A DNA stretch of 64,000 bases. Source: an uncultured delta proteobacterium (GTDB taxonomy: Bacteria > Desulfobacterota > Desulfobacteria > Desulfobacterales > JAHEIW01). The notes beneath the pieces are model-generated. The model made no database searches and was not told the origin of the DNA. It was given only the letters and a program-made list of their open reading frames with translations. The stretch is taken from NCBI GenBank assembly GCA_963706575.1, contig CAVPNL010000001.1, positions 384,001 through 448,000 of the forward strand. The letters are read 5' to 3'. The position numbers and the translations under genes are program-made. Positions 22,382 to 58,216 of the stretch are shown here, piece after piece (position 1 is the first letter of the stretch; every line of letters begins with the position of its first letter).

Positions 22382-23530
22382 CTATTTCGCCTTGCCCAGC
22401 AAATTATTGGAAATGATTACTTTCTCTACCTCTTTTGTGCCTTCGTAGATTTCGAGAACTTTACAGTCCCGGTAAAAGCGGGCAATATCATACTCGTTGA
22501 AAAAACCGTACCCGCCGTGCATTTGTAACGCCTCCTGGGCGACTGTGACGGCATTTTGGGCACAATACCATTTGGCCATTGCAATCAGGCCATGGTCCTC
22601 CTGGCCACTGTCGATGGTCCAGGCCGCTCGGTAGTATAGTGAACGTCCGGCTTCAATCAGAGTTGCCATTTCAGCAATCTTAAACCGAATGCCTTGAAAT
22701 GAAGCTATTTTTTTGCCAAATTGTTCTCTTTCCTTGATATGTTTGACGGCCTGCTCCAAAGCTCCCTGTGCAAGACCGACACCCTGAGCGCACACGGTAA
22801 TTCTTTCACGATTAAAAAGCCCCAGAATATGAGCAAAGCCTTCCTGCTCTTTTCCAATTAGATTGGTTGTCGGCACGCGCACATCTTTGAACACGACTTC
22901 AGCACAATCGGCTGCGCGGATACCCAGTTTATTTTTTAATTTGTTGGCTTGATATCCTGCTCTGTCGGTTTCAACCATGATGAGACTATATTGTCTATGG
23001 CGGGGCGCTTCCGGATGCGTTTTGCAAAACACCAGAATATAATCTGCCAGGGTGGCATTGCTGATGAACATTTTGCTACCGTTGATGATATACTCGTCCC
23101 TATCTCTAACAGCGGTTGTCTGGGCACTGGTGACATCCGATCCGGCATCCGGCTCGGTGATGGCGGTCCCCATAATCGCTTTAGCTTCCACCAGCGGTGT
23201 CAGATATTTTTTCTTTTGCTCCTCGCTGGCATGATCAATGATAATCTCGGCGCCAAAGGTCGTGGAGATGATGGCCTGGGATAGTCCGGGATCAATTCGC
23301 CAGAACTCTTCAACAATTAGGGCCTTTTCAAAAAAACCCAAGCCAAAACCGCCATATTCTTCAGGGATATACGACCCCACAAAACCAAGTTCCCGGGCCT
23401 TTTCAAGCAGGGCCATATCCAGTTCTTCCTTTAGGTCACATTCCTGAGCTACTGCAGGGAATTCGCCTTCGGCAAATTCCCTGGCCGCAAGTTTGATACC
23501 CTGCTGCTCCTTGTTCAATTTAAAATCCAT
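22382..23530 (-). CDS. Acyl-CoA dehydrogenase
   Basis: MDFKLNKEQ start after GAGGAGG; ITEPDAGSD, NGSKMFISN, KLGIRA, REQFGKKI, QMHGGYG, IYEGTKEV. Confidence 0.93.
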   Translation of the reverse strand: MDFKLNKEQQGIKLAAREFAEGEFPAVAQECDLKEELDMALLEKARELGFVGSYIPEEYGGFGLGFFEKALIVEEFWRIDPGLSQAIISTTFGAEIIIDHASEEQKKKYLTPLVEAKAIMGTAITEPDAGSDVTSAQTTAVRDRDEYIINGSKMFISNATLADYILVFCKTHPEAPRHRQYSLIMVETDRAGYQANKLKNKLGIRAADCAEVVFKDVRVPTTNLIGKEQEGFAHILGLFNRERITVCAQGVGLAQGALEQAVKHIKEREQFGKKIASFQGIRFKIAEMATLIEAGRSLYYRAAWTIDSGQEDHGLIAMAKWYCAQNAVTVAQEALQMHGGYGFFNEYDIARFYRDCKVLEIYEGTKEVEKVIISNNLLGKAK

Positions 23531-23637
23531 AATTAAAATCCTCCTCAAAAAACGGAATCGATTGAAAAGCGCAATTTGAATTTATATGACATCTGTTTGT
23601 GCAAAGCGATTCGTCGGGAACACAGCGATTGATAAAA

Positions 23638-24396
23638 TCAGGGAATCGTTAATCCGCCGTCAATGATGACATGCTCGCCAACAATATAACCGGCAAGATC
23701 TGATGCCAGGAATACAACCAGATTGGCGATCTCGGCGGGATCAGCGAACCGTTTGATGGGCACTCCTTTTAAAATCAATTCCCGTGATCCTTTTTGTAGA
23801 AATTGATCCACCAATTCTGTGTCGACAGGACCCGGCCCCACAGCGTTGACATTGATATTGTATTTGATCCATTCAATCGCCACTGACCGGGTAAAATGAA
23901 TAATGGCGGCCTTGCTGGAATGATAGGACGCATTTTTCGGTCCGGCGATGACGCCTCCCGTAGAGGCCATGTTGATGATTTTTCCGTACTTTTGTTCAAT
24001 CATATAGCGGCCGGCTGCCTGTGCACACAAGAAATAGGCCTTTAAGTTGACCGCCATCACTTTATCCCAGTCATCCTCGGTCTGTTCCATTAAGGCTGCG
24101 GGGGCCATGATGGCCGCGTTGTTAACTAAAATATGCAAACCGCCCAGCTGATCGATGGCCGTCGACATGAGTCGATCGACGGCTTCCTTGCGAGTCACAT
24201 CGGTGGGCACCGGCACTCCCTGGCATCCTTTTGACCGGATTTCTTCGGCCGTCTTTTCCAGTTGAACAGCCGTTCTGGCGGCCAAAACGACATCAGCACC
24301 GGCTTCAGCCAGGGCAATGGCGATGGCCTTTCCGATACCCCGTCCGGCGCCGGTGACAACCGCCACTTTTCCTTTCAGGTCGATTTCTATTGCCAT
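23638..24396 (-). CDS. Short-chain dehydrogenase/reductase
   Basis: TGAGRGIG, NNAA, YHSSK catalytic motif, IDGG. Confidence 0.92.
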   Translation of the reverse strand: MAIEIDLKGKVAVVTGAGRGIGKAIAIALAEAGADVVLAARTAVQLEKTAEEIRSKGCQGVPVPTDVTRKEAVDRLMSTAIDQLGGLHILVNNAAIMAPAALMEQTEDDWDKVMAVNLKAYFLCAQAAGRYMIEQKYGKIINMASTGGVIAGPKNASYHSSKAAIIHFTRSVAIEWIKYNINVNAVGPGPVDTELVDQFLQKGSRELILKGVPIKRFADPAEIANLVVFLASDLAGYIVGEHVIIDGGLTIP

Positions 24397-24439
24397 GCGT
24401 ATTTTCCTCCTGACGCTGCAGTAGCAAAAATCTCAGCTT

Positions 24440-24563
24440 GAAGCCATCTCGAAAATAGGATTTTGGTTCAAGATTCCGTCTTCGCCAAAAGGCTTCGCCG
24501 GGACATGCGAGGCACCAATCCCGCCAAAGGCGGGAGGTCAAAAGACATTTTTGAGATGGCTTC
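24440..24563. repeat. REP/MITE-like element with 17-bp terminal inverted repeats
   Basis: GAAGCCATCTCGAAAAT (24440-24456) / ATTTTTGAGATGGCTTC (24547-24563), 16/17 match; internal CCCGCCAAAGGCGGG hairpin. Confidence 0.72.
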
Positions 24564-25304
24564 TTACATCATAAAAGAGCCACCATCACAATTTATCGTT
24601 TGCCCGGTAATATAAGAAGCTTCATCCGAAGCCAGAAATACGGCCAGATTGGCCACTTCCATCGGATCTCCGAATCTGCCGAGGGGAATCCCGGATTTAA
24701 GTTTTTCCTGGGCTTCCGGTGGGACTGCTTTAAGCATGTCTGTCCAGATGGTTCCCGGAGAGATGCAGTTGCAGGTCACATTCTTACGACAAAGCTCTTT
24801 GGCCGCGGTGCGGGTCATGCCGACCACACCACCTTTAGAGGTCGCATAGTTCAGCTGTCCCGGGTTGCCAAATCTCGAAGTTGATGAAACATTAATGATG
24901 GTTCCTTTGCCTTGTTGCCGCATGTAGATCGCTGCCGCTTGCAGACAATTAAAACTGCCCTTCAAATTTACGTCTATCACCTGGTCCCATTGTTCCTCGG
25001 TCATTTTGTGCAGAATCGCATCCCTTGTGATGGCCGCATTATTTACCAGTATATCAAGATCACCCAAAATTTTAACCGTATCCGCCACCATGGATTCAAC
25101 AAACGCCTTTTGCGAAATATCACCGACAGCCATAAAGCATTTTCCGTTCATATCATTGACTTTGGACGCCACTTCTTTGAGGGCGTGCTCATCTATATCG
25201 CACAGGGTCACTTTAGCGCCTTCAGCAATAAACCTCAAAACCATGGCTTCACCGATGCCACGCGCTGCTCCGGTAACAATTGCCACTTTTTCTTTAAGTC
25301 GCAT
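24564..25304 (-). CDS. FabG-like 3-oxoacyl-CoA/ACP reductase (SDR)
   Basis: TGAARGIG, NNAAITRD, GNPGQLNYATSKGG, IPLGRFG, YITGQTI. Confidence 0.9.
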   Translation of the reverse strand: MRLKEKVAIVTGAARGIGEAMVLRFIAEGAKVTLCDIDEHALKEVASKVNDMNGKCFMAVGDISQKAFVESMVADTVKILGDLDILVNNAAITRDAILHKMTEEQWDQVIDVNLKGSFNCLQAAAIYMRQQGKGTIINVSSTSRFGNPGQLNYATSKGGVVGMTRTAAKELCRKNVTCNCISPGTIWTDMLKAVPPEAQEKLKSGIPLGRFGDPMEVANLAVFLASDEASYITGQTINCDGGSFMM

Positions 25305-25323: not shown

Positions 25324-25758
25324 TTATGATTTATCCATGGGGTAGAGGACTTCAAACTGCCCGGTCAACTTGATCTCTCCCTTTTGATCTTTGGCCTCGG
25401 TATGACACAAAATGCGAAGGTTTTCGTCTTCTGCGACTTTCTCAGTTACGGTGGCACTGACTGAAATCGTATCGCCCGCAAATGTCATCCCCTTAAAACG
25501 CACCTGAAACCGCTTCAAATATCGTTTCGGCGCCCAGCAGGTAATGGCCTGGCCGACAAAGCCCATAATCAATAGCCCCTGTGCAATTACGCCCTTTAAA
25601 CCCGCCTTTTGAGCGACAGCGTCATCGGTATGCAGGGGATTAAAATCGCCTGAGGCCCCGGCATAGCGAACCAGTTGAGTCTTCGTTACCGGATCTTTTA
25701 CAACGATAGGGAGCATATCGCCAACTTCTATTTCACTAAAATTTACGTAAGGCGCCAT
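25324..25758 (-). CDS. MaoC-like (R)-specific enoyl-CoA hydratase, catalytic subunit
   Basis: YAGASGDFNPLHTD...VIAQG hydratase-2 motif. Confidence 0.88.
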   Translation of the reverse strand: MAPYVNFSEIEVGDMLPIVVKDPVTKTQLVRYAGASGDFNPLHTDDAVAQKAGLKGVIAQGLLIMGFVGQAITCWAPKRYLKRFQVRFKGMTFAGDTISVSATVTEKVAEDENLRILCHTEAKDQKGEIKLTGQFEVLYPMDKS

Positions 25759-25779
25759 GTTGTTATTCTGTTTCTATTT

Positions 25780-26229
25780 CTATAATCGTTCTATTATTAA
25801 AGATCTGGCCTTTAGGACGGTCTGGTCTTTTTGGTTGGTGAAAATGGTTTGCAGTGTAATCAGATCAAGACTTCCCGATTTGGTTTCCTTTTCAACAATC
25901 GATTCACAGGACATCTGACAGTGCAACACATCTCCGGGAAAAATTTCACCGATATATTCATATTCTTCCTCTCCATGCAGAACGCGCTCAAGCGGCACAT
26001 CGAGCATTTTGAAGATTTCGAGGTAAGCGCCGGTGAACTCCTGAAATGCCATCGTAATGTAAGTGGGCGGGCAGGGGGTATCCGGGTAACCTTCAGCTTC
26101 CGCCTTAGATCTGTCCAGGTAGATCGGGTTGTCATCCCCGATGGCAGCCATCAATTCCCGGATCTTTACGCGCTCGACTTCCAAGAGATAGGTCGGCAAT
26201 TTTACACCGATCTTTGATTTGTCTGCCAT
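25780..26229 (-). CDS. MaoC dehydratase N-terminal-type partner subunit (HadA/HadC-like)
   Basis: VERVKIRELMAAIGDDNPIY...PPTY...LHGEEEYEY. Confidence 0.85.
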   Translation of the reverse strand: MADKSKIGVKLPTYLLEVERVKIRELMAAIGDDNPIYLDRSKAEAEGYPDTPCPPTYITMAFQEFTGAYLEIFKMLDVPLERVLHGEEEYEYIGEIFPGDVLHCQMSCESIVEKETKSGSLDLITLQTIFTNQKDQTVLKARSLIIERL

Positions 26230-26254: not shown

Positions 26255-27475
26255 TTAAACTTGTAAAATAATGGATTCTCCCTGGCCAAGTCCACCACAA
26301 ATGGCGGCTGCACCGCTGCCGCCTCCCCGGCGCATCAATTCATACATCAATGTCATGGTGATACGCGCTCCACTGGCCCCAACCGGGTGCCCAATGGCAA
26401 TGGCGCCGCCGTTGACATTGGTGATCTCCTGAAGGGCGTTGTATTTATAGGCATCCATTTCGGCCAAGGCCTTTAACGAAACCAGGGTAACGGCCGCAAA
26501 CGCCTCGTTGATTTCGATGAGATCCAGGTCGTCGATAGTTTTTTGGGTGTTGGAAAGCGCCTTATTAATGGCCTTGGCGGGCAGGGTGGCCATATAGTTG
26601 GGTTCCGCCGCATCCCAGGCCATGGTTTCAATGGCGGCCAGGGGTTGAAGACCCAGTTTGTCGGCCTTCTTGCGGCTCATGATCACAATCGCCGAACCAC
26701 CGGCGTTCATCCCCGGCGCATTTCCGGCAGTCACGGTTGGGCTGCCGTATATGGTCCTGAGTTTTGCCAGTTTTTCCAAAGAGGTCTTGCGCGGCGGTTC
26801 GTCTCGGTCGAAGACAATGGGATCACCCTTGCGCTGGGGGATCTCAAGTGCCATGATTTCTTGGCCGACTTTATATTTTCCTTCTTCATAGGCTGCTGCC
26901 CAGCGTTCTTGGCTTCTCAGGCCCCAATTGTCTTGCTCCGCCCTGTCAATTTCGAATTCCAAAGCGACTTCACCGGCATCCAGCGCCACCGGATTGAAGC
27001 CTTTTTTGCCGTACCCCAGCTCAAACAGGATATCGACCATCTGGATATGGCCCAACCGGTTACCCCAGCGGCCGCTTTTGGCTTCCACCAGGTGACAGGC
27101 GTTGCCCATATTTTCTGCCCCGCAGGCAATTGCCACATCTGCTTCCCCGGAACGGATGGCACGAAACCCTAATCGCAGTGCCGTCATGGACGAACAGCAC
27201 GCCCGATCGAGGGTCAGGGAGATGCTGTCGGACGGAAATCCCGCCAGCAGGGTGATTTGCCTGGCCGGGACATTCAAATAGGGGGCATATTCGGCGGGAA
27301 TACAGGTTCCGTAATAAAGCTCATCCACCTCCGCAGGATCGAGTTGAATCCGATTGAGCGCTTCCTTAACCACCATGACACCCAGATCGATGCTGGGAAC
27401 ATCCTTGAGAACCCCGTCAAAGCGACCGAAAGGGGTTCTGACCGCACTGACAATGACCGCATCGGTACTATCCAT
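26255..27475 (-). CDS. Thiolase (acetyl-CoA C-acyltransferase)
   Basis: Likely start MDSTDAVIVSAVRTPFG; DRACCSS, VTAGNA, EINEAFA, GHPVGASG, CGGLGQG. Confidence 0.93.
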   Translation of the reverse strand: MDSTDAVIVSAVRTPFGRFDGVLKDVPSIDLGVMVVKEALNRIQLDPAEVDELYYGTCIPAEYAPYLNVPARQITLLAGFPSDSISLTLDRACCSSMTALRLGFRAIRSGEADVAIACGAENMGNACHLVEAKSGRWGNRLGHIQMVDILFELGYGKKGFNPVALDAGEVALEFEIDRAEQDNWGLRSQERWAAAYEEGKYKVGQEIMALEIPQRKGDPIVFDRDEPPRKTSLEKLAKLRTIYGSPTVTAGNAPGMNAGGSAIVIMSRKKADKLGLQPLAAIETMAWDAAEPNYMATLPAKAINKALSNTQKTIDDLDLIEINEAFAAVTLVSLKALAEMDAYKYNALQEITNVNGGAIAIGHPVGASGARITMTLMYELMRRGGGSGAAAICGGLGQGESIILQV

Positions 27476-27506
27476 AATGTTTTCCTTGTTTTTACGCGTT
27501 AACGGT

Positions 27507-29058
27507 TTAAACCGGCATGATGCCGTGCTTGCGGGGCGATTGCGATGCACTGCTTTTTATCAAGCATCTTAAGGGCCTGGATCGTTTTTATTCGGGTCTC
27601 GGCCGGATCGATGATGTCGTCAATCACCCGTAAACCTGCTGCCAGGTAAGGCGTTGCGTAATTTTTTTCATATTCTGCAATAAATTTTTGACGGGCAGCT
27701 GCAGGATCCGACGCGCTGGCAATTTCTTTGGCCCAGATGACCTCAGCAGCGCCTTCCGGGCCCATGGAAGCGCATTCCGCCGTGGGCCAGGCGTAGACCA
27801 GGTCGATCCCCAGTTCCTTGGGGCCCATAGCCGACCAACCGCCACCGTACGCCTTGCGCAGGATGATCGTGATCATGGGCACCGTGGCTTCAGAATAGGC
27901 GTAGAGCATTTTTGCGCCGTGGCGGATGATTCCTCCGTACTCCTGGTCAATGCCCGGCAGAAAGGCAGTCGTGTCCATTAAGGTGACGATGGGGATGTTA
28001 AATGCATCCAGGATCTGAATAAATCGGGCACCCTTATCGGATGCATTGATATCGATGCTGCCACCTAAAAATTTGGACTGGTTGGCAATAATGCCGATAC
28101 TGCGACCATCCATTCTGGCAAGGCCGATCACCAGATTGGGCGCATATTCCGGTTTGATTTCTAAAAACTGTCCATCATCTACAATTTCCTGAATGACCCG
28201 ACGCACATCATAGACTTTTTTCTTTTCAGCCGGCACGATTTCCAGCAGCCCCGGGCATCGTCTCCCAGGGTCATCTGTGGTGGCGATCCTGGGCGGTTTC
28301 TCAAAGCAATTGGGCGGAAAATAGGACAATAGCGCTTTGATCGTTTCCAGACAATCATCGTCATTTTCGGTTTCAAGGTCGGCCACGCCGCTCTTTCTGC
28401 AGTGAATCTGTGAGCCGCCCAACTCATCGGGGCTGGTTTCCGCTCCGGTGACCGCCTTGATCGCTGCCGGTCCGGTAATGAACATGAAGCTGGTCTTTTT
28501 GGTCATCAGGATAAAGTCCATTAGCGCCGGTGAGTAAACAGACCCCCCCGCCGAAGGTCCCATAATGGCCGCAATTTGGGGGATGACGCCGGAACACCTC
28601 GCGTTTTGGTAAAATAGCCGGGCAAAGGTAATATTTTCAGATCCCTCCTGAAGTCGTGCACCGGCCGAATCATAAAGGCCGATCAAGGGAACCTTTTGTT
28701 CATACGCCATGGCAGCCAGATCCGCCATTTTCTTCTGGTGCACCGGGCCGGCAGAACCGCCCATCACCGTAAAATCCTGGGAATATATAAAAACGGTCTG
28801 GCCTTGAATCTCCCCGTAGCCGGTAACCACCCCATCTGCCGGAAGCATCTTTTTATCCATGCCCAGACGATTGCAGCGATGGTATGCAAAAAGTCCCAAT
28901 TCAACGAATGTGTCCGGATCCAGCAGTTTTTGAATCCGCTCTCGGGCAGTCAGCTTTCCTTTTTTATGCTGGGCTTCAATTTTGGCCGAACCGCCCCCTA
29001 GTTCCAATTCGGCGCGTCGCTCTTTCAGTTCTTGGATTTTATCTTTCATCAAGCTCAT
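27507..29058 (-). CDS. Acyl-CoA carboxylase/decarboxylase carboxyltransferase subunit (PccB/MmdA-like); 1-nt frameshift at ~27549
   Basis: GKLTARERI, QDFTVMGGS, DSAGARLQEG, GPSAGG, IIRHGAK, RKAYGG; the conserved C-terminus (ASQSPRKHGIMPV*) lies in the +1 frame, ending at 27507. Confidence 0.9.
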
Positions 29059-29101
29059 CACTTTGCCTTTCGAATTGATGCGTGAATCCATCCGGTTTGA
29101 C

Positions 29102-30319
29102 TCAGATTACCCCTTCATCTTTCAATCGCTGAATATCTTCCTTGCCATAATCCAAAAAATTCCGAAGGATATCCTCTGTATGCTCTCCCAGCAGCGGTGC
29201 TGCCTTGCGGATATCACCGGGGGTTTTAGACATTTTTACCGGTGGGCCAGCAATCTGAAGCAGGCCTGCAATAGGATGCTGGACTTCGACCAGCATTTCT
29301 CTGGCCTTAACCTGAGGACATTTGAAGATATCATCCACCGTTTGCACCGGTGCGACCGGCACATCATGTTTGATCAACAATTCAACCAGCGCATCCCGAT
29401 TGTTGGATTTGACCCAGGTCTCGATGATGGGTCTGAGATAATGGTAATTTTCAGCGCGTCCCGACATGGATTGGAGTTCGGGTTTTTCGAGCAGATGATC
29501 CTGTTTCATGGTATGGCAGAAGTTTTGCCAATGTTTTTCCCAGTGGCCGGCAATAACGATATATTTTCCATCCTTTGTTTCGAAACAATCATAAGGCGCA
29601 TAAAGGGGATGTGCATTTCCTTCCCGGCCTGAAATGATACCGGATATGGAGTACATCATGATCGCGCGTTCGATCATATAAAGCATGGTATCATACATGG
29701 CGCAATCCACATGTTGTCCCTTACCGGTTTTGTTGGCATCGTGTAAAGCCACCATTGTCGCAAATGCGGCAATGGTGGACGTCCAGATATCGCCAATCCC
29801 CGGGCCGACCTTATAGGGCATCCCGCCTTTGGGGCCGGTCATGGCCATTACTCCGCCCATGGCCTGGGCGATTAGATCAAAGGCGGGTCGTTCTCGATAG
29901 GGGCCGGTATGGCCAAATCCCGAAATGCTGGTATAGACAATTCTGGGGTTTATGGCGCTTAACGTTTCGTAGTCCAACCCCAGACGATCCATTACAGCGG
30001 GTCGGAAATTTTCGACAACAATATGGGCGGATTTCACCAATTCTTTTACAATGGCAACACCTTTTGGGTGTTTGAGATTGAGCGTCATGCTTTTTTTGTT
30101 ACGGCTGATGGATAGAAAGAATCCTCCCGCGCGGTGGTCATTGTCTTGCTGGGAAAAGGGTCCGATACTTCGCGTATTATCTCCGGTGCCCGGCTGTTCG
30201 ATTTTAATAACTTCGGCGCCATAATCACCCAGCATCATGGTGGCATATGGGCCGGCCAGCATCAGTGTGAAATCAAGCACCCGGATATCTTTGAGCGCCT
30301 GCTGAGAAGGTGGATTCAT
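29102..30319 (-). CDS. Family III CoA-transferase (CaiB/BaiF)
   Basis: RVLDFTLMLAGP, GAEVIKIE, RNKKS, ENFRP, SISGFG, catalytic Asp in GIGDI, APLLGEHT. Confidence 0.93.
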   Translation of the reverse strand: MNPPSQQALKDIRVLDFTLMLAGPYATMMLGDYGAEVIKIEQPGTGDNTRSIGPFSQQDNDHRAGGFFLSISRNKKSMTLNLKHPKGVAIVKELVKSAHIVVENFRPAVMDRLGLDYETLSAINPRIVYTSISGFGHTGPYRERPAFDLIAQAMGGVMAMTGPKGGMPYKVGPGIGDIWTSTIAAFATMVALHDANKTGKGQHVDCAMYDTMLYMIERAIMMYSISGIISGREGNAHPLYAPYDCFETKDGKYIVIAGHWEKHWQNFCHTMKQDHLLEKPELQSMSGRAENYHYLRPIIETWVKSNNRDALVELLIKHDVPVAPVQTVDDIFKCPQVKAREMLVEVQHPIAGLLQIAGPPVKMSKTPGDIRKAAPLLGEHTEDILRNFLDYGKEDIQRLKDEGVI

Positions 30320-30406
30320 TTCCAGCTCATCATCGTTGTTCGGATCACCCGTTTGAGATGGGCTTCTGGTTTAGGAAGAGCGCAATTTTATTGCCATTAA
30401 AAATTT

Positions 30407-30458
30407 AATTAAATTTTGAATTATTTTTGGATTATATTCGGCGGTCTGAGGATGTCAA
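30407..30458 (-). promoter_or_regulatory. sigma70 promoter plus 16-bp operator for the CoA-transferase/beta-oxidation operon
   Basis: Minus-strand TTGACA (30458-30453)-N16-TATAAT (30436-30431); operator AATTAAATTTTGAATT at 30407-30422. Confidence 0.7.
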
Positions 30459-30572
30459 GAAAAATTTTTTCTTAGACGCATGGCGACCAGCTTTTATATA
30501 AATCTTATCATTTATATTGTAAACAAGGAATGTTACCGGTGAAATGGCGTTAAGAACAGATTGAACTTTTGC

Positions 30573-30615
30573 TTGACAGGAATTAATTATTGAATTAAAG
30601 AAAAAATTAAATTTT
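30573..30615 (+). promoter_or_regulatory. Promoter/operator upstream of trpB2
   Basis: TTGACA 30573-30578 followed by AATTAATTATTGAATT (30581-30596) and AATTAAATTTT. Confidence 0.65.
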
Positions 30616-46724: not shown

Positions 46725-46739
46725 CAAAGGGGAGCAGAT

Positions 46740-49352: not shown

Positions 49353-49473
49353 TGTTATCCTCCTTTGACTTGAATCCTATGGTTTCAAATGAATACCGAG
49401 ATCGGCTATCCAGAAACTCAAATTATATTTCAGGTGTTTGTTATTGAAGATACCGCTGCAAATGCCTTGCAGA

Positions 49474-50178: not shown

Positions 50179-50227
50179 ATTTTATCCTCCTTTGATAAGA
50201 ATGGTTGTCTGCGTTCGAGTTTGTCGT

Positions 50228-51355: not shown

Positions 51356-51429
51356 CGATTAATCCCCCTGTAACGATCAGTTTGTGTACAAAAATTCTTG
51401 ATGTCAGTGGTAATTTTAATGCATAAATT

Positions 51430-51477
51430 AATTAATTATTGAATTATTTTTATGATAGATATCCGAAATTAAGTCAA
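51430..51477 (-). promoter_or_regulatory. Operator and -35 box upstream of the hydrolase operon
   Basis: AATTAATTATTGAATT 51430-51445; minus-strand TTGACT 51477-51472. Confidence 0.6.
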
Positions 51478-51629
51478 GGAAAAAAAGAATCTCGGCATTA
51501 CGTTCCTGGAACCGGTTGAACATAAAGTTTTCAATTGTTTAACCTGAAACTAATTTTATACAATTTATTCAAATAATTAAATCTTTGTCCGAAATGTTTT
51601 ATATTTTTTCTGCATTTACATGTTTTTGC

Positions 51630-51672
51630 TTGACGGAGTTTTCATATTGAATTAAATATGGAATTAATTTTA
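51630..51672 (+). promoter_or_regulatory. Promoter/operator upstream of the CoA ligase-ABC transporter operon
   Basis: TTGACG 51630-51635, GTTTTCATATTGAATT 51638-51653, AATTAATTTT. Confidence 0.6.
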
Positions 51673-51814
51673 TCAAATTTGTGTTTACTAAAGACAGGTT
51701 TAGATTGTCTCAAAAGAATTTGATTTTGTTTTCAGATCCCATAATGAATTTGATAAAAATGGCTCGTATGGGCACCATCTTTTAATTTAATTCATTCATA
51801 AGGGAGCATCGGCC

Positions 51815-53365
51815 ATGCATCTAAGGGAAGTTTTGCTAAGAGAAGCACGGCGCAACGCCAATGTGGATGCGTTTATCTATGGGAACCAGCGCATGAGTTT
51901 CTATCAACTCAAAGAAAGAGGGTGTCGTCTGGCAAATGCACTTTCTGCATTGGGAGTGAAGCCAGGAGATCGGGTCGGGATTCTTCTTTATAACTGCTTT
52001 GAATATCCTGAGGTGCTCTGGGCCAATTTTATGCTGGGATCGGTTGCCGTAACGCTTAACTTTCGTCTGGTATCGGACGAGATCTTATATGCGCAAGAAG
52101 TGGCAGATGTCAATGTTTTGATACTGGGGGAAGAGTTTATCGAGCAAATCGAGCCGATTAAAGATCGTCTGGGGATTGATCATTACATCTGTCTTGGCAA
52201 AGAAGCCCAGCCGGACATGTCGTTTTATTCGGATTTAATGGAAAACGCAAGGGCGGATATTCCTCCTTTTACCGGAAATGATCGAGACGCCGCTGTGGTT
52301 TTGTTTACTTCGGGAACCGCTGCCTTTCCAAAGGCGGTGGTGCTCACCCACCAAAACCTCATCACGGCTGGCCTGGTCTGGGCGGCGGATATGGATATTC
52401 GGTATGGTGACAATTGCCTGGTGGTCACACCGTTCTATCACATCGGGGCGGTAGGGTATCATCTGGCTCACGCCATTTCTGGATCCAGTACCACCTGTTT
52501 TCCACAGCCTTCCTGGGATCCGGAGCTTTTTCTAAAAATCGTTGAAAAGGAAAGATGCACCTATCTGTATATTACGCCGGGGATGTATCGACAGGTTTTT
52601 TCCGTACCGAAATTTAAAGAATATGATCTCAGCTCATGGCGTACCTGTATCACCGGTTCGGAACCGGTACCCAGAGCCACCATCGAAGAGATGGCCGAAT
52701 ACCTTCCCCAGGGCCGCATCTACAATGCGTACGGGCTGACAGAAGCGACCGGACCCGCTGTTTCGGTGGCCAAGCATGAAATGGCCATTGAAAAAGCGCC
52801 ATCTGTGGGGCGGCCGTTCGTGAATACGGACATTCGGGTGATGGGTGAAGACGGAGAAGAATGCCGGACGGGCGAAGTGGGCGAAATAGCGGTAAAAGGT
52901 GATCAGGTCATGCGTGAATATTTGAATGATCCGGATACCACCAACGCCACGCTGAAAGCGGGTTGGCTCTATACCGGAGATCTGGGACAGATGGACGGCG
53001 ATGGATATCTATATGTCGTGGACCGTAAGAAGGACATCATTATCAGCGGTGGCGAGAACATCTCTTCGGTGGAGGTTGAATCCACTCTTTACAAACACCC
53101 CAAAATTATGGAAGCCGCTGTCATCGGGATTCCGGATGCCAAATTTGGCGAAGGCGTCTGTGCCGTCGTTGTCCCCCGGGAAGGCCAGGAGATCGCCGAA
53201 CAAGAAGTTCTGATGTACTGCAAAGAACATCTTGCCAGTTACAAAAAACCGCGGAAGGTGATTTTCACTGACGCGCTCCCACGGAATCCCTCTGGTAAAG
53301 TATTGAAACGGGATTTAAGGAAGCGTTACGCCGGCAGCGAAAAGAAGGTCTTTGCGCGCAAGTAG
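51815..53365 (+). CDS. Acyl/aryl-CoA ligase (ANL superfamily)
   Basis: LFTSGTAAFPK, YGLTE, WLYTGDLG, SGGENISSVEVE, LPRNPSGKVLK. Confidence 0.92.
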   Translation: MHLREVLLREARRNANVDAFIYGNQRMSFYQLKERGCRLANALSALGVKPGDRVGILLYNCFEYPEVLWANFMLGSVAVTLNFRLVSDEILYAQEVADVNVLILGEEFIEQIEPIKDRLGIDHYICLGKEAQPDMSFYSDLMENARADIPPFTGNDRDAAVVLFTSGTAAFPKAVVLTHQNLITAGLVWAADMDIRYGDNCLVVTPFYHIGAVGYHLAHAISGSSTTCFPQPSWDPELFLKIVEKERCTYLYITPGMYRQVFSVPKFKEYDLSSWRTCITGSEPVPRATIEEMAEYLPQGRIYNAYGLTEATGPAVSVAKHEMAIEKAPSVGRPFVNTDIRVMGEDGEECRTGEVGEIAVKGDQVMREYLNDPDTTNATLKAGWLYTGDLGQMDGDGYLYVVDRKKDIIISGGENISSVEVESTLYKHPKIMEAAVIGIPDAKFGEGVCAVVVPREGQEIAEQEVLMYCKEHLASYKKPRKVIFTDALPRNPSGKVLKRDLRKRYAGSEKKVFARK

Positions 53366-53484
53366 CTGAGATAAAGAATTATCAAAATAGGCCAAGCGAA
53401 AAATAGTTCCGTTATAAATGGTCTCAAACATTTTGACTGTTTTAAGCGCCATTGTAAACCGATATTTAGTGAAAGAAAAATCTG

Positions 53485-54408
53485 TTGAAATCGCACTTTC
53501 TCATATTACCCATATTTGTGGCAGCGATTTTTCTCTTTCCGCTGGTATTTCCTGAATCCTATTGGATAACGGTTTTCATATATGTGGGCATCTATGGCCT
53601 GATTGTTGTTGGCTACGACCTTCTTTTGGGTTATTGCGGTCAGATTTCCCTGGGACATAACGCCCTGTTTGCGATCGGGGCATACGCCACCGCCATTACA
53701 ACCACCTGGTTTGGCTGGTCTCCAATATTCGGCATCATTGGTGGCATATTCATTACCTGCCTGATCGCCTATGTTGTTGGAATTCCCACTTTGAGGCTTC
53801 GTGGTTACTATTTGGCCATTGCCACGATGGGATTCGCCTTTATCGTTGAATCGCTGATCAGGACCCAGTACTTTGGCGGGTCTTCGGGCATTTCAGGAAT
53901 CCCTCATCTTTCCGTCTTAGGCTATACCTTCGATTCTGACCGCAGTTATTACTATCTTGTCTGGAGCATTGTTTTCCTGGCGGCTGTTGTTTGCTTGCGA
54001 ATTGGTGAAACGGCACTTGGCAGAAGCATGAAGGCCGTGCATACCGACGAAGAGGCTGCCGGATGCATGGGAATCAATGTTGCCAAAACCAAAATTCAGG
54101 TATTTGTATTTAGCGCCGCGCTGGCAGCTATCGCCGGCAGTTTATATGCCCATTATGGGACGGTTATTTCTCCCAATAGTTTCAATATTATGCTGTCGGT
54201 GAAACTGCTGCTGATGCTTTTCCTGGGAGGCGCCGGCAGCATATACGGGGGGCTTATCGGTGCCTTAATTTTGTTTGCACTGCCTGAATTTCTGGAACAT
54301 ATGGAGAGACTTGAACTGGCAATTGAAGGCCTTGTGTTCATGCTCATTCTTATTTTTCTGCCTAAAGGTTTAGTTGGGGGATTAAACCGATTATTGAATT
54401 TAAGATAG
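53485..54408 (+). CDS. livM: HAAT (Liv-type) ABC transporter permease LivM-like
   Basis: GYCGQISLGH, LRLRGYYLAIAT, GRSMKAV..DE.AA..MGIN, LGGAGS. Confidence 0.88.
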   Translation: MKSHFLILPIFVAAIFLFPLVFPESYWITVFIYVGIYGLIVVGYDLLLGYCGQISLGHNALFAIGAYATAITTTWFGWSPIFGIIGGIFITCLIAYVVGIPTLRLRGYYLAIATMGFAFIVESLIRTQYFGGSSGISGIPHLSVLGYTFDSDRSYYYLVWSIVFLAAVVCLRIGETALGRSMKAVHTDEEAAGCMGINVAKTKIQVFVFSAALAAIAGSLYAHYGTVISPNSFNIMLSVKLLLMLFLGGAGSIYGGLIGALILFALPEFLEHMERLELAIEGLVFMLILIFLPKGLVGGLNRLLNLR

Positions 54409-54470
54409 ATAATAATCCGATATAATAAAAAAAATATAGCTCGGACTAAAGACGGTCACCGTAACAGGAT

Positions 54471-55265
54471 ATGGCAAACACGCACCGGCAAATTTTAAAA
54501 GGTCGATCAATCTCGAAAAATTTTGGAGGCCTACAAGCCCTGCTGAACGTCGATTTTGAGGTCGAAAACGGAATGATCTTTGCCATTATCGGGCCCAACG
54601 GTGCGGGTAAAACAACTCTGTTCAATCTTATATCCGGCTTTGACAGAGATTATTCGGGCGAATTCATTTTTAAAGATGTGTCCCTGGGTCAATTTCCGCC
54701 ACACGATATCACCTTGCGAGGAATTGCCAGGACGTTTCAAAATGTCAGGCTTTTTAAAAATCTTTCAGTACTCGAAAATGTTGCAGTGGGATGTCATGGA
54801 TGGGCGGCTCCAATTTATTCTCGCGCCATATTCGGTTTTAAGTCTAACCGGCAGGAGGAACATACCATTAAAGCGTATGCCCTGGAGATGCTGGACTTTG
54901 TAGGATTGGCGGATAAAAGAAACACGGAAGTCGAATCCCTTTCTTTAGGTGAGCAAAAGCTATTGGAAATCGCACGTGCACTGGCGGCCAAGCCCAAACT
55001 GTTGCTGTTAGATGAACCCGGAGCCGGGCTGAACGATCGGGAGATGGACAACTTAGAGGAGATTATTTTTAAAAATAAAGAAAACGGAATTACCCAGATT
55101 ATTGTTGAACACAATATGAAATTCATCATGAGCATTTCAGATGAAATTATGGTGCTTAATTTCGGAAACAAAATCGCTTATGGTCCCCCTAAACTAATTG
55201 TCAGCGATGAAAGCGTAATTGAAGTATATCTGGGCAAGGAAGAGAATCTTGTTAGAACTGAATAA
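54471..55265 (+). CDS. livG: HAAT ABC transporter ATPase LivG-like
   Basis: FGGLQAL, GPNGAGKTT, GIARTFQ, LLLLDEP, VEHNM. Confidence 0.9.
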   Translation: MANTHRQILKGRSISKNFGGLQALLNVDFEVENGMIFAIIGPNGAGKTTLFNLISGFDRDYSGEFIFKDVSLGQFPPHDITLRGIARTFQNVRLFKNLSVLENVAVGCHGWAAPIYSRAIFGFKSNRQEEHTIKAYALEMLDFVGLADKRNTEVESLSLGEQKLLEIARALAAKPKLLLLDEPGAGLNDREMDNLEEIIFKNKENGITQIIVEHNMKFIMSISDEIMVLNFGNKIAYGPPKLIVSDESVIEVYLGKEENLVRTE

Positions 55266-55962
55266 TGTCACATCCGGTTACGGAAAATTTCAAGTCCTAA
55301 AAGAGGTCTCCATAAAAGTGAATGCAGGCGAAATCGTTTGCGTGGTTGGCGCCAATGGTGCCGGTAAAACGACCATGATGCGGGCGCTTTCAGGTATTAT
55401 TCCCATCTGGCAGGGTGGTAAATCCTTTAACCGTAAAGATGTGACCCGGCTCAGTGCAGCAAAATTAACCAAAGCGGGCATCATACAGATACCGGAAGGT
55501 CGATTGATCATCAAGGAACTCTCGGTTGAAGACAATCTTCGTTTAGGCGCATACTCCCACTATTTTAAGCTGGGCAAAGCCGAATACCGAAAAGATCTGG
55601 ATTCTGTCTATGAACTGTTTCCCATACTGTACAAAAGAACGCGTCAAAAAGCCGGTACACTGTCAGGCGGAGAACAACAGATGCTGGCCATTGGGCGGGG
55701 TCTGATGGGCAGACCCAAAATGCTCTTACTTGATGAACCCTCTCTGGGGCTCGCGCCGCTGGTGGTTTCCACCATTTTTAAGGTTATCAAAGAACTTAAT
55801 CAGAACGGATTGCCGATTCTTCTCGTTGAGCAAAACGTGAGGGCTGCCATGCAAATTTCAAATCGGGGGTATGTCCTGGAAACCGGGTCGGTTGTCTTAG
55901 AAGGAAGATGTGAAGATCTTCTAAACGATGAAAAGATCGTGCGGGCCTACATGGGTGCGTAA
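55249..55962 (+). CDS. livF: HAAT ABC transporter ATPase LivF-like
   Basis: Likely TTG start at 55249; GANGAGKTT, PEGR, AGTLSGGEQQMLAIGR, LDEPSLGLAP, LVEQN. Confidence 0.9.
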   Translation: MLELNNVTSGYGKFQVLKEVSIKVNAGEIVCVVGANGAGKTTMMRALSGIIPIWQGGKSFNRKDVTRLSAAKLTKAGIIQIPEGRLIIKELSVEDNLRLGAYSHYFKLGKAEYRKDLDSVYELFPILYKRTRQKAGTLSGGEQQMLAIGRGLMGRPKMLLLDEPSLGLAPLVVSTIFKVIKELNQNGLPILLVEQNVRAAMQISNRGYVLETGSVVLEGRCEDLLNDEKIVRAYMGA

Positions 55963-56074
55963 TCTCTAACAACAGGAGGTAATAGGGTCAAAAAGGTGCA
56001 AGGGATGGAATGTGAGTGACCAATCAAAATGTTACCACTTATTAAAAACGCATTAAAAATGAAAGGAGGATACC

Positions 56075-57256
56075 GTGAAAAGATCAACATTATTTGTGAT
56101 AGCCATCGCTATCGTCGCCATTTTTGTCTGTTCGCAAACCGTGTTTGCAGCTGATACAATTAAAATTGGTGCTGCTTATGGGATGACCGGCCGAATTGGC
56201 TGGATCGGAGAGGATTGTGTCAATGGCGCAAATTTAGTTGTCGATGAAATCAACGCCAAGGGTGGGATTAATGGAAAGAAAATTGAATTGGTTGTCTACG
56301 ATACCAAAAATAATGCCGACACAGCCAGAACGATTTTTGAAAAATTGGTCAAAAAGGATAAGGTCGTGGCAATCATAGGGCCCGTCGTCACCCAGGCAAC
56401 TCAAACCGTCATGCCCATTGCTGAGAAATACAAAATCCCTTACGCAGCGGTTTCAGGTGGCATCGAGATCAATGCCAAAATCCTGCCCGATTATAATAAT
56501 CAGGGAAAAAAAAGTTATACCTGGGCCATGAGTATCGGTACTCCCAGACAGAATGAAGTCAAAACCATCTGGCTTCAGAAAAAGGGCTTTAAAAAACTGG
56601 GCAATATCGAGCCGTTGTCCCAGATGGGAGAGCTTTCAACAGCCACTTATGACCAGTGGGCCCAACAGTACGGCATGGAGGTTGTCGCAAAAGAAAAATT
56701 TGACAACAAAGGCACCGATTTCACAACCCAGATGTCAAAGCTCAAAGCGGCCGGTGCGGATTCCATCGGAACGATGGCATCCGGCGGCCCGGCGGTGACT
56801 CTTGTTAAAAACAGGGATCAGGTTGGCATGCAAGGCGCACCGATGATGGTTTCCGATGCCAATCTCTCCAAAAAGTTTATCGGCCTGCTGGGAGAAAACA
56901 CTGCCAACGTATACACTGTTGGCGCTAAGATCAGCTTTCCCCAGCACCTGGATGCAAGTGATCCGCAGAAACAAATCATTGCGGATTTTCAGAAGAAATT
57001 TGAAGCCAAATTCGGAAAAGGTCCCAAGAGCTGGTTTTTTGCCTCGGTGGGCTATGATAGCGCTCTGATGTTTGTAAAAGCGATTGAACAGGCCGGAACC
57101 GATGGCGAGAAAATTCGGGATTGGGTAGAAGGTCAGTCGAAATTTCAGGGGGTTCAGGCAGTATATTCCTGGAGTGCCTTGGATCACCGCGGAATCGGAG
57201 TGGATCAATGTTCGGTTCTGGGAATTAAAGACGGCGATTGGGTGCCGGCTCAATAA
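56075..57256 (+). CDS. HAAT ABC transporter periplasmic substrate-binding protein
   Basis: Signal peptide MKRST...VFA; IKIGA, INAKGGINGKKIELVVYD, DFTTQMSKLK, GYDS, DHRG; strong RBS AAAGGAGG. Confidence 0.9.
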   Translation: MKRSTLFVIAIAIVAIFVCSQTVFAADTIKIGAAYGMTGRIGWIGEDCVNGANLVVDEINAKGGINGKKIELVVYDTKNNADTARTIFEKLVKKDKVVAIIGPVVTQATQTVMPIAEKYKIPYAAVSGGIEINAKILPDYNNQGKKSYTWAMSIGTPRQNEVKTIWLQKKGFKKLGNIEPLSQMGELSTATYDQWAQQYGMEVVAKEKFDNKGTDFTTQMSKLKAAGADSIGTMASGGPAVTLVKNRDQVGMQGAPMMVSDANLSKKFIGLLGENTANVYTVGAKISFPQHLDASDPQKQIIADFQKKFEAKFGKGPKSWFFASVGYDSALMFVKAIEQAGTDGEKIRDWVEGQSKFQGVQAVYSWSALDHRGIGVDQCSVLGIKDGDWVPAQ

Positions 57257-57266
57257 TATTTGTCTG

Positions 57267-57307
57267 ACGGGAAAGGCTCGCAAGAACCGATGAGCCTTTC
57301 CCGTTTT
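57267..57307 (+). terminator. Stem-loop after the binding-protein gene (terminator/attenuator)
   Basis: ACGGGAAAGGCTC-N12-GAGCCTTTCCCGT followed by TTT. Confidence 0.65.
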
Positions 57308-57343
57308 AATGATTTTCAAGGGATGTAATCTAGGAGTAAGGCA

Positions 57344-58216
57344 TTGGACACGTTTTCACTCTATGTTCAATTTATCATTTCGGGCCTAACCATGGGAGCC
57401 ATCTATGCCATGGTGGGTATCGGCTTTTCCTTCATCTACCGGGTCACCACGGTATTGAATTTTGCTCAAGGTGAATTTCTTATGTTGGGTGGTATGGTGG
57501 CCATCACGATGACGTCTGTTATGGGGTCATCTCTTATATTCGCCCTGATCCTTGCTATTCTGGCGGTAACGCTAACCGGCATGCTGTTTCATCTGGGAGC
57601 CATTCGGGTGCTCGGAAAGGCCGAACCGGTTAGAATGATTCTGATCACTATCGCGGGGTCCATGTTTTTACAGGGTGTCGCTTATCTAATCTGGGGAACG
57701 GATGATTACAAACTGCCGGCACTCGTTAAAACCGGAACCATCAATATTTTCGGGGCGGCTGTCAACTCTCAGGTAATTCCGGTATTCATAGCTGCATTTT
57801 TAATCTCCTTTATTTTAAAAATCTTTTTCGACAAGACTATCTGGGGTAAAGCCAGCACCTCCTGTGCTGAAAGTCACGAAGCGTCCATGTTACTGGGCAT
57901 AAATGTTGATCGCATGGGAATGCTGAGTTTTGCCATGTCCGCCGGAATCGGGGCAATCGGTGGTATTTTGATTGCGCCGATTTCCTTGATGCAATACCAA
58001 AAAGGTGTCCCCCTGGCGATTAAAGGCATTGCCGGTGCGGTCATTGGGGGTCTCGGTAACATCTGGGGTGCATTGATAGGCGGCTTGATACTGGGGCTGG
58101 CTGAGGCGCTGAGCGCCGGTTTCATTGCATCTTACATGACCGACGTGGTTGTATTTGTGATTCTGATCCTGGTCCTGTTTATCAGACCGGAGGGCCTGTT
58201 AAAATCCAAATTATAA
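57344..58216 (+). CDS. livH: HAAT ABC transporter permease LivH-like
   Basis: GLTMGAIYAMVGIGF, LNFAQGEF, GGLGNIWGA, RPEGL. Confidence 0.88.
   Translation: MDTFSLYVQFIISGLTMGAIYAMVGIGFSFIYRVTTVLNFAQGEFLMLGGMVAITMTSVMGSSLIFALILAILAVTLTGMLFHLGAIRVLGKAEPVRMILITIAGSMFLQGVAYLIWGTDDYKLPALVKTGTINIFGAAVNSQVIPVFIAAFLISFILKIFFDKTIWGKASTSCAESHEASMLLGINVDRMGMLSFAMSAGIGAIGGILIAPISLMQYQKGVPLAIKGIAGAVIGGLGNIWGALIGGLILGLAEALSAGFIASYMTDVVVFVILILVLFIRPEGLLKSKL

Follow-up and report, generated by a model that had tools for sequence, protein, structure and literature searches.

A candidate GntR regulon with a variant, indoleacetate-type enzyme set in an uncultured Desulfobacterales bacterium

Indole, tryptophan metabolites and auxin are abundant signals and wastes in anoxic sediments and guts. 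To our knowledge, the indoleacetate (iaa) pathway of denitrifiers is the only oxygen-free route worked out so far; its molybdenum (Mo) enzyme and hydantoinase-like enzyme were reportedly described by Ebenau-Jehle in 2012. Here we examine a gene cluster at about 22.4-58.2 kb of a 64,000-nucleotide stretch of DNA (the window) from an uncultured Desulfobacterales bacterium. It spans C1:384001-448000 of an assembly that is 91.8% complete and totals 5.67 Mb on 25 contigs; C stands for a contig of this organism's own genome, L for a fetched DNA locus and G for a genome. We put at roughly 0.5 the probability that the cluster is a single GntR regulon for the anaerobic breakdown of the coenzyme A (CoA) ester of an N-heterocyclic aryl-acetic acid, likeliest indole-3-acetate (IAA) or indoleacetyl-CoA. 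Taken by itself, the assignment of an indolic acid (IAA or IAA-CoA) as the substrate seems about an even bet. Clusters of this design, with an M24-family hydrolase, appear to form a conserved, undescribed family with three non-orthologous replacements relative to the iaa pathway.

In a published account of that pathway, indoleacetate is activated by the ligase IaaB, and later steps involve the CoA-transferase IaaL, the mutase IaaGH and an oxidative decarboxylation by IaaF (WP_011236983 in A. aromaticum EbN1), whose orthologues have GGG in place of the YEG active-site motif and whose physiological electron acceptor is given as still unknown; predicted iaa operons are reported for Desulfatiglans anilini, other sulfate reducers and Ferroglobus placidus (PMC8360864). 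The window regulon resembles the iaa systems of Aromatoleum aromaticum and Azoarcus evansii in its predicted order of CoA ester, Mo hydroxylase, ring hydrolysis and family III CoA-transferase, followed by a B12 mutase yielding a substituted malonyl-CoA and then beta-oxidation, and in combining binding-protein-dependent uptake with a dedicated regulator. It differs in six respects. The hydantoinase-like pair is missing, with an M24 protein, a cysteine hydrolase (Cys-hydrolase) and a NIPSNAP protein instead; the ligase is of the FadD type, whereas IaaB is of the PaaK type; IaaF is absent, and a YEG dehydrogenase, an epimerase and a carboxyltransferase are present; a MaoC pair and two short-chain dehydrogenases/reductases (SDRs) stand in for the fused hydratase/dehydrogenase; the regulator is a GntR protein with its own operator; and TrpB2 and IorAB are attached to the regulon.

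Two other systems resemble parts of the cluster. The skeleton rearrangement and decarboxylation of (1-methylalkyl)succinyl-CoA in anaerobic alkane degradation is said to have been reported by Wilkes et al. in 2002. That alkylsuccinate route shares with the window an epimerase, a mutase resembling methylmalonyl-CoA mutase (MCM) and a carboxyltransferase that removes a carboxyl of a substituted malonyl-CoA before beta-oxidation, but no glycyl-radical fumarate-adding enzyme was found in the window, where the succinyl moiety would come from ring opening instead. The bbs operon of anaerobic toluene degradation encodes family III CoA-transferases, an acyl-CoA dehydrogenase, the SDR pair BbsCD and a thiolase. 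The window has CoA-transferases, a dehydrogenase, an adjacent SDR pair and a thiolase predicted to act likewise on an aryl-substituted dicarboxyl-CoA, but its hydratase is of the MaoC rather than the crotonase type, and the Mo hydroxylase, mutase and hydrolases have no bbs counterpart.

Pfam and NCBIfam scans of every long open reading frame (ORF) at 18.9-64 kb of the window recovered all the gene classes that a sequence-only reading of this DNA had named, where it had placed them. Those of the catabolic core are as follows.

22382-23548, minus strand: acyl-CoA dehydrogenase with a YEG motif, final gene of the minus-strand operon (Pfam)
23638-24396 and 24564-25304, minus strand: two neighbouring SDR genes (Pfam)
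25324-26229, minus strand: MaoC / HadB-HadA-like hydratase subunit pair (Pfam, NCBIfam)
26255-27550, minus strand: thiolase (Pfam, NCBIfam)
27499-29091, minus strand: MmdA/PccB-family carboxyltransferase, specialised paralogue (TIGR01117, below cut-off)
29102-30319, minus strand: family III CoA-transferase 1, not of the IaaL type (Pfam, NCBIfam, tree)
40078-40758, plus strand: GntR/FCD regulator (Pfam)
40860-42533 and 42520-42924, plus strand: large and B12-binding subunits of a split B12 acyl-CoA mutase (Pfam, NCBIfam)
42988-47216, plus strand: Mo hydroxylase, with large subunit, CoxG, flavin adenine dinucleotide (FAD) subunit and 2Fe-2S subunit (Pfam, NCBIfam)
47244-48431, minus strand: family III CoA-transferase 2, IaaL type (identity, tree)
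48529-49008, plus strand: methylmalonyl-CoA-epimerase-family protein (TIGR03081, above cut-off)
50228-51355, 49474-50178 and 49032-49352, minus strand: M24 hydrolase, isochorismatase-like Cys-hydrolase and NIPSNAP protein, one operon
51815-53365, plus strand: FadD-type acyl-CoA ligase (Pfam, NCBIfam)
Up to 58216, plus strand: Liv-type ABC transporter, with permease, two ATPases, binding protein (56075-57256) and permease

Three hallmarks of the iaa pathway appear to be replaced here, namely the hydantoinase pair, the PaaK-type ligase and the IaaF (GGG) dehydrogenase. The predicted substitute for the hydantoinase pair is an M24 hydrolase free of metal ligands together with the Cys-hydrolase and the NIPSNAP protein. 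The best solved matches of the M24 protein are the ectoine hydrolase DoeA (62 bits), prolidases and creatinase, all with low scores, and it reaches 121 bits against the NCBIfam ectoine hydrolase model (cut-off 575). Compared with prolidases 5CDL and 1WN1, it has other residues at all five metal-ligand positions, which we take to be Asp, Asp, His, Glu and Glu. With DoeA/EutD and creatinase it shares the Creatinase_N plus M24 fold and the loss of these ligands; DoeA and creatinase act on non-peptide C-N bonds, and DoeA opens a ring, but the match is no higher than 62 bits and the gene context in the window is entirely other. In the Cys-hydrolase, a triad of D36 (IDMQ), K141 (PKATRSAF) and C174 (TDVCV) can be read from the sequence, and such Asp-Lys-Cys motifs are presumably those of isochorismatase-like cysteine hydrolases. 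Hydantoinase_B is absent from the window, as the sequence-only reading had noted, but the genome does have a hydantoinase-type cluster beginning about 41 kb beyond the window end, with its only two Hydantoinase_B genes (C1:495767 and C1:513713). The two known creatinine routes offer a parallel for a swap between a hydantoinase-family and an M24/isochorismatase-family hydrolase.

The role of IaaF would fall to the epimerase, the carboxyltransferase and an ordinary YEG acyl-CoA dehydrogenase. The translation of the latter contains LEIYEGTKEVEK and reads IYEGT, and its best NCBIfam matches (acryloyl-CoA reductase and glutaryl-CoA dehydrogenase) are below cut-off; the acyl-CoA dehydrogenase of the hydantoinase cluster L023 reads IGGGT. 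The carboxyltransferase reaches 710 bits against TIGR01117 (cut-off 998); it shares 51% identity with its housekeeping counterpart (C6:793441), 81% with those of the compact clusters described below and 73% with that of G088. For the epimerase, identity with the housekeeping gene product (C6:789539) is 41%. Because separate housekeeping genes for an epimerase, an MCM and a carboxyltransferase lie on C6, the mutase, epimerase and carboxyltransferase of the window are therefore taken as a specialised set. The MaoC pair is single-copy in the genome and was not seen in L071 or L076. There are two AMP-ligases in the window, a second one lying at 20633-22177; both carry AMP-binding and AMP-binding_C domains and are of the PRK06187 / FadD13 type, whereas PaaK-type ligases (AMP-binding_C_2) occur in three hydantoinase clusters. 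The differences from iaa listed by the sequence-only reading, with M24 and Cys-hydrolases for hydantoinase, the MaoC pair and SDRs for the crotonase module, and an epimerase and a carboxyltransferase as additions, thus all stand.

Despite these substitutions, three core enzymes appear to belong to or adjoin the clades of hydantoinase-containing iaa-type clusters. As references we used three clusters that combine hydantoinase and mutase genes, one from the genome itself and two, from a Desulfosporosinus metagenome-assembled genome (MAG; L017) and a Rhodobiaceae MAG (L023), that came up as relatives of the Mo subunit; the trees were quick IQ-TREE maximum-likelihood trees with SH-aLRT support. 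The Mo large subunit falls within a 12-row clade (of 33 rows; support 99) that holds all three reference Mo subunits and those of the compact clusters, apart from 4-hydroxybenzoyl-CoA reductase (4-HBCR)-like and other clades. CoA-transferase 2 groups with all three reference transferases in a 10-row clade with support 100 and shares 70% identity with the one from the own-genome hydantoinase cluster; in the same 17-row tree, CoA-transferase 1 falls in a clade without iaa-type transferases. The mutase forms a clade (support 99, 16-row tree) with those of a third own-genome cluster and G088, which is sister to the three hydantoinase-linked mutases (45-54% identity) and apart from the other own-genome paralogues. 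The kinship with Iaa proteins that the earlier reading expected of these enzymes was thus borne out within context-defined iaa-type clades for the Mo subunit and CoA-transferase 2; for the mutase, with a sister relation at support 83, the placement is less clear.

In its active site, the window mutase retains the Tyr, Arg and His positions of methylmalonyl-CoA mutase, which presumably bind a carboxylated substrate. Among solved structures it matches 2-hydroxyisobutyryl-CoA mutase best, but the Ile/Asp pair that we take to be the mark of that enzyme is missing. The HCQTSGWSLT stretch of the fused housekeeping paralogue, assumed to line the acyl pocket, reads YSGSCGSTLT in the window mutase, a run of small residues shared with the iaa-type reference mutases, which read FAGTGGSTLT, IAGGGGFGLT and LFGGGGSGLT. 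Against NF006944, the large and small subunits score 591 and 112 bits (equivalog cut-off 876), and identity to the fused housekeeping MCM on C6 is 45-47%.

The nearest solved structure to the Mo large subunit is the alpha subunit of 4-HBCR (HcrABC, PDB 1RM6) at 483 bits, the next match scoring 305, and a CoA-ester substrate would therefore fit the Mo enzyme; against TIGR03194 it reaches 673 bits (cut-off 994). The FAD subunit is of normal length (290 amino acids, no Fe-S insertion), lacking the extra segment of the 332-334-amino-acid subunits of the third own-genome cluster and in this differing from HcrABC, and the window enzyme is for this reason likelier to be a hydroxylase than a reductase.

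The cluster family was seen in 21 metagenome loci (at least 4 kb of DNA, with an M24 protein at least 68% identical to that of the window), in the near-identical Desulfobacterales MAGs L014 and L015, and in G088 and G590. Sediment, estuary and marine metagenomes are its sources, and sequence words of the window were found in 20 runs of 15 studies. Matches to the M24 protein above 31% identity are confined to G000 and G088 in a set of 201 genomes from the order, and in a 401-genome sample of the phylum the sole other match at E <= 1e-35 is 29% identical. In a large protein collection, about 35 M24 clusters reach at least 52% identity. Every one stems from a metagenome or MAG and none from a cultured organism, and the relatives bear generic names, e.g. 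Xaa-Pro dipeptidase. A full-text literature search, with the Schuhle 2016 iaa-operon lists outside its scope, found no publication on the hydantoinase-free cluster form, and none joining indoleacetate with isochorismatase or creatinase.

An isochorismatase-family gene follows the M24 gene in 20 of the 21 metagenome loci, the exception ending at the M24 gene, and NIPSNAP is then present in 19. In the compact form (L071-L076), one arm carries two SDR genes, thiolase, carboxyltransferase and CoA-transferase 1, and the divergent arm carries GntR, the large and small mutase subunits, M24, isochorismatase, NIPSNAP, ligase, a gene resembling an ADP-forming CoA ligase, and the FAD, 2Fe-2S and large Mo subunits; CoA-transferase 2 and the epimerase come after it. 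The SDR pair (78-81%) and the thiolase (74%) are conserved in L071 and L076. Outside this compact core are the MaoC pair, the 388-amino-acid dehydrogenase, the ABC transporter, TrpB2, the B3/4 protein, SerC and the MFS transporter. G088, whose genome is 100% complete, carries an M24-type set on two contigs; the transferase there is of the IaaL type (70%), and the Mo subunit is a relative (45-48%). No Hydantoinase_B was found in that genome, and an M24-type cluster can therefore stand alone. Modules seem to have been exchanged between close relatives, because the Mo large subunit of the compact form is 44-46% identical to that of the window amid neighbours at 70-84%, and because L082 is a mosaic in which mutase (95%), GntR (92%) and iorA (94%) are near-identical to those of the window and M24 (76%), ligase (74%) and Mo large subunit (45%) are of the compact-cluster type.

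The sequence-only reading had proposed that these genes share one operator motif. A k-mer comparison of the intergenic regions yielded one common 17-mer, ATTAATTATTGAATTAA, with a palindromic TTAAT-N6-ATTAA core. It has 10 matches at up to 3 mismatches in the window, all within 21 kb (30396 to 51667), where shuffled sequence gave a mean of 0.55 and a maximum of 3 (100 shuffles), and 69 in the 5.67-Mb genome; all three genomic sites with 0-1 mismatches and five of the eight with up to 2 lie in the window. With its retention in distant relatives, described below, this upholds the proposal. The sites occupy four divergent control regions.

CoA-transferase 1 / trpB2:
30458-30431, minus strand: sigma-70 promoter TTGACA-16-TATAAT (12/12), ahead of CoA-transferase 1
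30396-30412 and 30408-30424: two overlapping operator sites just downstream of the 12/12 promoter, before CoA-transferase 1
30573-30598, plus strand: TTGACA box and perfect operator (17-mer from 30582), 400 nucleotides upstream of trpB2
AAA-iorAB, opposite serC:
36992-37008: operator site with 2 mismatches, 32 nucleotides upstream of the AAA-iorAB operon
MFS gene / gntR:
39844-39863: operator pair, upstream of the MFS gene
40018-40023 and 40027-40043: TTGACA box and perfect operator, upstream of gntR
M24 operon / ligase-ABC operon:
51416-51447: operator sites
51630-51635 and 51651-51667: TTGACG box and operator, before the ligase

At the plus-strand sites 30582 and 40027 the TTGACA box lies 2-3 nucleotides upstream of the 17-mer, and the site at 51651 is 15 nucleotides downstream of its TTGACG box. 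An operator following a 12/12 promoter is the usual repression layout, and the GntR protein (40078-40758), which presumably binds the operator, would repress from operators overlapping or directly following promoters.

The layout recurs in M24-type relatives. The operator with its TTGACA box is kept in L072-L076, L082 and L083, where proteins are only 70-80% identical, with the box again 2-3 nucleotides before the 17-mer in L072, L074, L075, L076, L082 and L083; GntR orthologues (70-75%) follow the same layout in L072, L073 and L075, and the site at 36992-37008 is kept in L015. The operator is absent from L017 and L023, both of the hydantoinase type, and from the two other Mo-hydroxylase/mutase clusters of the genome, although a single 3-mismatch match lies in the L012 part of the hydantoinase cluster, L013 having none. 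The 17-mer is therefore the probable operator of the M24-type family, because it is kept in M24-type clusters and absent from these others. The matches examined elsewhere in the genome (C3:19-31 kb, C2, C9 and C18) lie in or beside glycosyltransferase, histidine-kinase and similar genes; they were rejected as regulon members and are treated as chance matches in AT-rich DNA.

Two of the operator-bearing regions adjoin genes of indole and tryptophan metabolism in the middle segment of the cluster, which holds the following genes.

30997-32409, plus strand: TrpB2, a TrpB-like pyridoxal phosphate (PLP) enzyme (NF009057, above cut-off)
32811-33518, plus strand: stand-alone B3/4-domain protein (Pfam)
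36241-36960, 34296-36173 and 33693-34280, minus strand: AAA_21 ATPase, iorA and iorB, one operon (TIGR03336, above cut-off)
37380-38468, plus strand: SerC, single copy (NCBIfam)
38551-39765, minus strand: MFS transporter (Pfam), with operator sites 39844-39863 upstream

TrpB2 scores 707 bits against NF009057 and is the only TrpB-like gene found in the genome; IorA scores 763 bits against TIGR03336, above the cut-off for the alpha subunit of indolepyruvate:ferredoxin oxidoreductase. The operators at trpB2 and AAA-iorAB appear to link the regulon to indole and tryptophan, as had been proposed for these two loci, and the trpB2 layout recurs in G590, of the same genus, where the genes for TrpB2 (94%) and CoA-transferase 1 (93%) adjoin and the operator is perfect. 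At least two species thus have TrpB2 under the operator, possibly as the result of a rearrangement. No terminator-like site separates the promoter region at 30573-30598 from trpB2, and no Rfam family matched the window at gathering thresholds, so the 400-nucleotide trpB2 leader holds no known riboswitch or T-box. Among the metagenome loci, iorA and AAA lie beside gntR only in L082.

Most relatives have a TrpB2 (19 of 21 genomes), generally at about 63% identity, and a divergent TrpB2/SerC pair occurs in the genus members G593 and G595. In the window, TrpB2 and SerC probably mark an ancestral biosynthetic spot, and SerC is probably housekeeping. About 50 nucleotides (-35 box, operator and ATTAAATT) are nearly repeated between 30567-30610 (trpB2) and 40010-40060 (gntR); the compact control region between CoA-transferase 1 and gntR was apparently divided and duplicated as the trpB2-to-MFS segment came to separate the two genes. 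TrpA, IGPS and a canonical trpB above cut-off were not found in the 91.8% complete genome. In the genus, 4 of 12 genomes yielded a TrpA; none was found in G028 or G595, both 97% complete. The missing TrpA and IGPS may reflect tryptophan auxotrophy with indole salvage by TrpB2, or an assembly gap.

If the cluster is an indoleacetate regulon, the acid would be imported by the ABC transporter and activated by the FadD-type ligase; alternatively, IorAB could make indoleacetyl-CoA directly from indolepyruvate, and TrpB2 would channel free indole into tryptophan. The HcrA-like Mo hydroxylase would oxidise the ring carbon adjoining the nitrogen to give a lactam, which the metal-independent M24 protein, the Cys-hydrolase or both would open without ATP to (2-aminophenyl)succinyl-CoA, with NIPSNAP as a putative helper. 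The IaaL-type transferase would then move the CoA to a new position and the B12 mutase would produce (2-aminobenzyl)malonyl-CoA, from which the epimerase and carboxyltransferase would take off the carboxyl, as in anaerobic alkylsuccinate metabolism. The dehydrogenase, MaoC hydratase, SDR pair and thiolase would finish beta-oxidation to 2-aminobenzoyl-CoA and acetyl-CoA.

Several observations weigh against this reading, in which the substrate and every chemical step are ones that we infer. The dehydrogenase lacks the IaaF signature, having YEG rather than GGG, and the ligase at 51815-53365 is of the FadD13 / feruloyl-CoA-synthetase type, not PaaK. Two C-N hydrolases and NIPSNAP are strictly conserved, yet indoleacetate needs one ring opening. 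TrpB2 occurs in none of the 21 metagenome loci and iorA only in L082, the conserved core holding neither TrpB2 nor IorAB within the DNA seen, and the near duplication of the gntR promoter at trpB2 may be a recent recruitment or a rearrangement relic. No acyl-CoA dehydrogenase or hydratase was seen in the compact clusters L071 and L076. Between otherwise close clusters, identity of the Mo large subunit falls to 44-46%, against 70-84% for its neighbours. In the trees, "iaa-type" stands for gene context plus GGG in one cluster, the Aromatoleum Iaa sequences not being among the rows, and the sister relation of the mutase has 83 SH-aLRT in 16 rows. Finally, the existence of the hydantoinase cluster in the same genome means that the M24-type regulon may serve another substrate. 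Of the iaa-like regulon proposed by the sequence-only reading, the iaa logic and the ties of three core proteins have held, and the YEG dehydrogenase, the FadD ligase and a core without TrpB2 and IorAB speak against it.

A tentative alternative is that the same architecture acts on another N-heterocyclic or amino-aromatic acid (a pyridine, pyrrole, imidazole or quinoline carboxylate or acetate, or another tryptophan metabolite) and indoleacetate is left to the hydantoinase cluster. That cluster (C1: about 489-515.5 kb; L012, L013) looks complete, with a CoA-transferase, GntR, mutase subunits, two hydantoinase A/B pairs, two PaaK-type ligases, a thiolase-like gene, a Mo hydroxylase, an ABC transporter and a glyoxalase-fold gene, and the window ligase is of the FadD type. 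Two amidine/amide-type hydrolases and NIPSNAP in 19-20 of 21 loci would suit indole less well than a ring in which two C-N bonds can be hydrolysed. The M24 protein is similar to creatinase and to DoeA, which hydrolyses a ring amidine; the Mo subunit comes closest to 4-HBCR, which acts para to the aroyl-CoA thioester; and the core clusters do without TrpB2 and IorAB. However, the trees group the Mo subunit and the transferase, and less firmly the mutase, with their counterparts from hydantoinase-type iaa-like clusters, operator sites precede IorAB and TrpB2, and G088 has only the M24-type cluster and no hydantoinase. By reasoning only, no nicotinate-type route needing the mutase could be written; nicotinate-type and imidazole-acetate-type routes were set aside on the same footing, as neither needs a mutase.

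An extension of the indoleacetate reading, which we consider unlikely, is that indole is activated by serine addition: TrpB2 would join indole to serine, the tryptophan would be transaminated, and IorAB would form indoleacetyl-CoA, which the hydantoinase-free route would take to 2-aminobenzoyl-CoA. Free indole would then not be attacked via hydroxylation to oxindole, an equally doubtful corollary. If true, this would be an indole activation akin in logic to the addition of fumarate to hydrocarbons, and the oxindole ring would be opened by a new enzymatic solution.

Less probable still is that the window and the hydantoinase cluster are halves of one pathway, the hydantoinase cluster carrying out the upper steps on indoleacetate and the window supplying decarboxylation and beta-oxidation plus a second upper branch. 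This would explain why no acyl-CoA dehydrogenase, hydratase or carboxyltransferase was found in the 40 kb examined around the hydantoinase cluster, the genome's only GGG-motif dehydrogenase lying on another contig (C3:80009-81031; 34% identical to an IaaF-like reference), and why the MaoC pair and dehydrogenase are present in the window and absent from the compact clusters. But the hydantoinase cluster lacks the operator apart from the single 3-mismatch match, a Mo enzyme, mutase, transferase, ligase and transporter are all encoded in the window itself, and G088 carries the M24-type cluster without any hydantoinase.

That the mutase, epimerase and carboxyltransferase are a plain propionyl-CoA to succinyl-CoA module on an unrelated operon is very improbable, and this methylmalonyl-only reading was rejected: the mutase keeps the MCM Tyr, Arg and His, the epimerase passes TIGR03081 and the carboxyltransferase is most like MmdA, but a housekeeping set lies on C6 (epimerase 41%, fused MCM 47%, carboxyltransferase 51%), and the mutase sits between gntR and the M24 gene in compact clusters, departs from the housekeeping enzyme in the QTSGW stretch as iaa-type mutases do, forms a clade apart from the housekeeping paralogues and scores below the MCM equivalog cut-off (591 vs 876).

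Should the indoleacetate reading hold, uncultured relatives of sulfate reducers would carry a second, conserved design of the iaa-type pathway. The M24-type design would avoid the ATP-consuming lactam hydrolase, which counts for energy-limited anaerobes, and would use an epimerase and a carboxyltransferase in place of the unusual oxidative decarboxylase IaaF. It would also give candidate functions to an M24 subfamily without metal ligands, to the Cys-hydrolase and to a bacterial NIPSNAP protein, and the defined operator-repressor pair could be used to find the true inducer.

A third Mo-hydroxylase/mutase cluster lies at C1: about 232000-272000 (L042, L043, L004), with a mutase (72%), epimerase (75%) and GntR protein (59%) related to those of the window. 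It also encodes a carboxyltransferase, 3HCDH, an SDR, a 595-amino-acid dehydrogenase, two Mo enzymes with FAD subunits of 332-334 amino acids (4-HBCR-like extra segment), one PaaK-type and two FadD-type ligases, Amidohydro_2, a nitroreductase, an OYE gene and an ABC transporter.

In G088, the M24 gene (C20:26288-27455 of that genome; loci L045, L056, L057) is read in two frames, covering residues 1-172 and 170-371, which is either a frameshift or an assembly error. A gene resembling an ADP-forming acyl-CoA synthetase occurs in the L017 hydantoinase cluster and in the M24-type clusters of G088 (L056) and L076, and MeaB is present in L017 and G088. More distant M24 relatives (37-44% identity, soil metagenomes) have no isochorismatase or NIPSNAP neighbours, in high-GC loci where ORF picking is unreliable. 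Contigs from four RNA-labelled runs of three studies cover 28-30 of 30 bins of 40000-58300, mostly at 90-95% identity; they were rejected as evidence of transcription or induction, being contigs of relatives with possible DNA carry-over.

The B3/4 protein has an orthologue in only one of 200 other genomes of the order (G139, 59%), with neither TrpB2 nor other window genes alongside. At the outer edge of the cluster, a stand-alone V4R-domain protein is encoded directly upstream of the second FadD-type ligase (20117-22177 for the two), convergent with the dehydrogenase. V4R domains are small-molecule binders, and no operator site was found at these two genes, which may be a separate sensor/ligase pair whose membership in the regulon has no support. 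The genes upstream of 18.6 kb belong to an unrelated locus. A long minus-strand array at 1626-18585 contains GlnA-like, GATase, GXGXG and Glu_synthase-domain genes, sarcosine-oxidase-like parts (DAO, SO_alpha_A3/BFD, Fer2_4, Pyr_redox_2), two BMC shell genes (9225-9779 and 11470-11946), an RnfC/Nuo51-like gene, an actin-fold ATPase and an aldehyde dehydrogenase, and looks like an N-methylglutamate-type amine pathway beside microcompartment shell genes.

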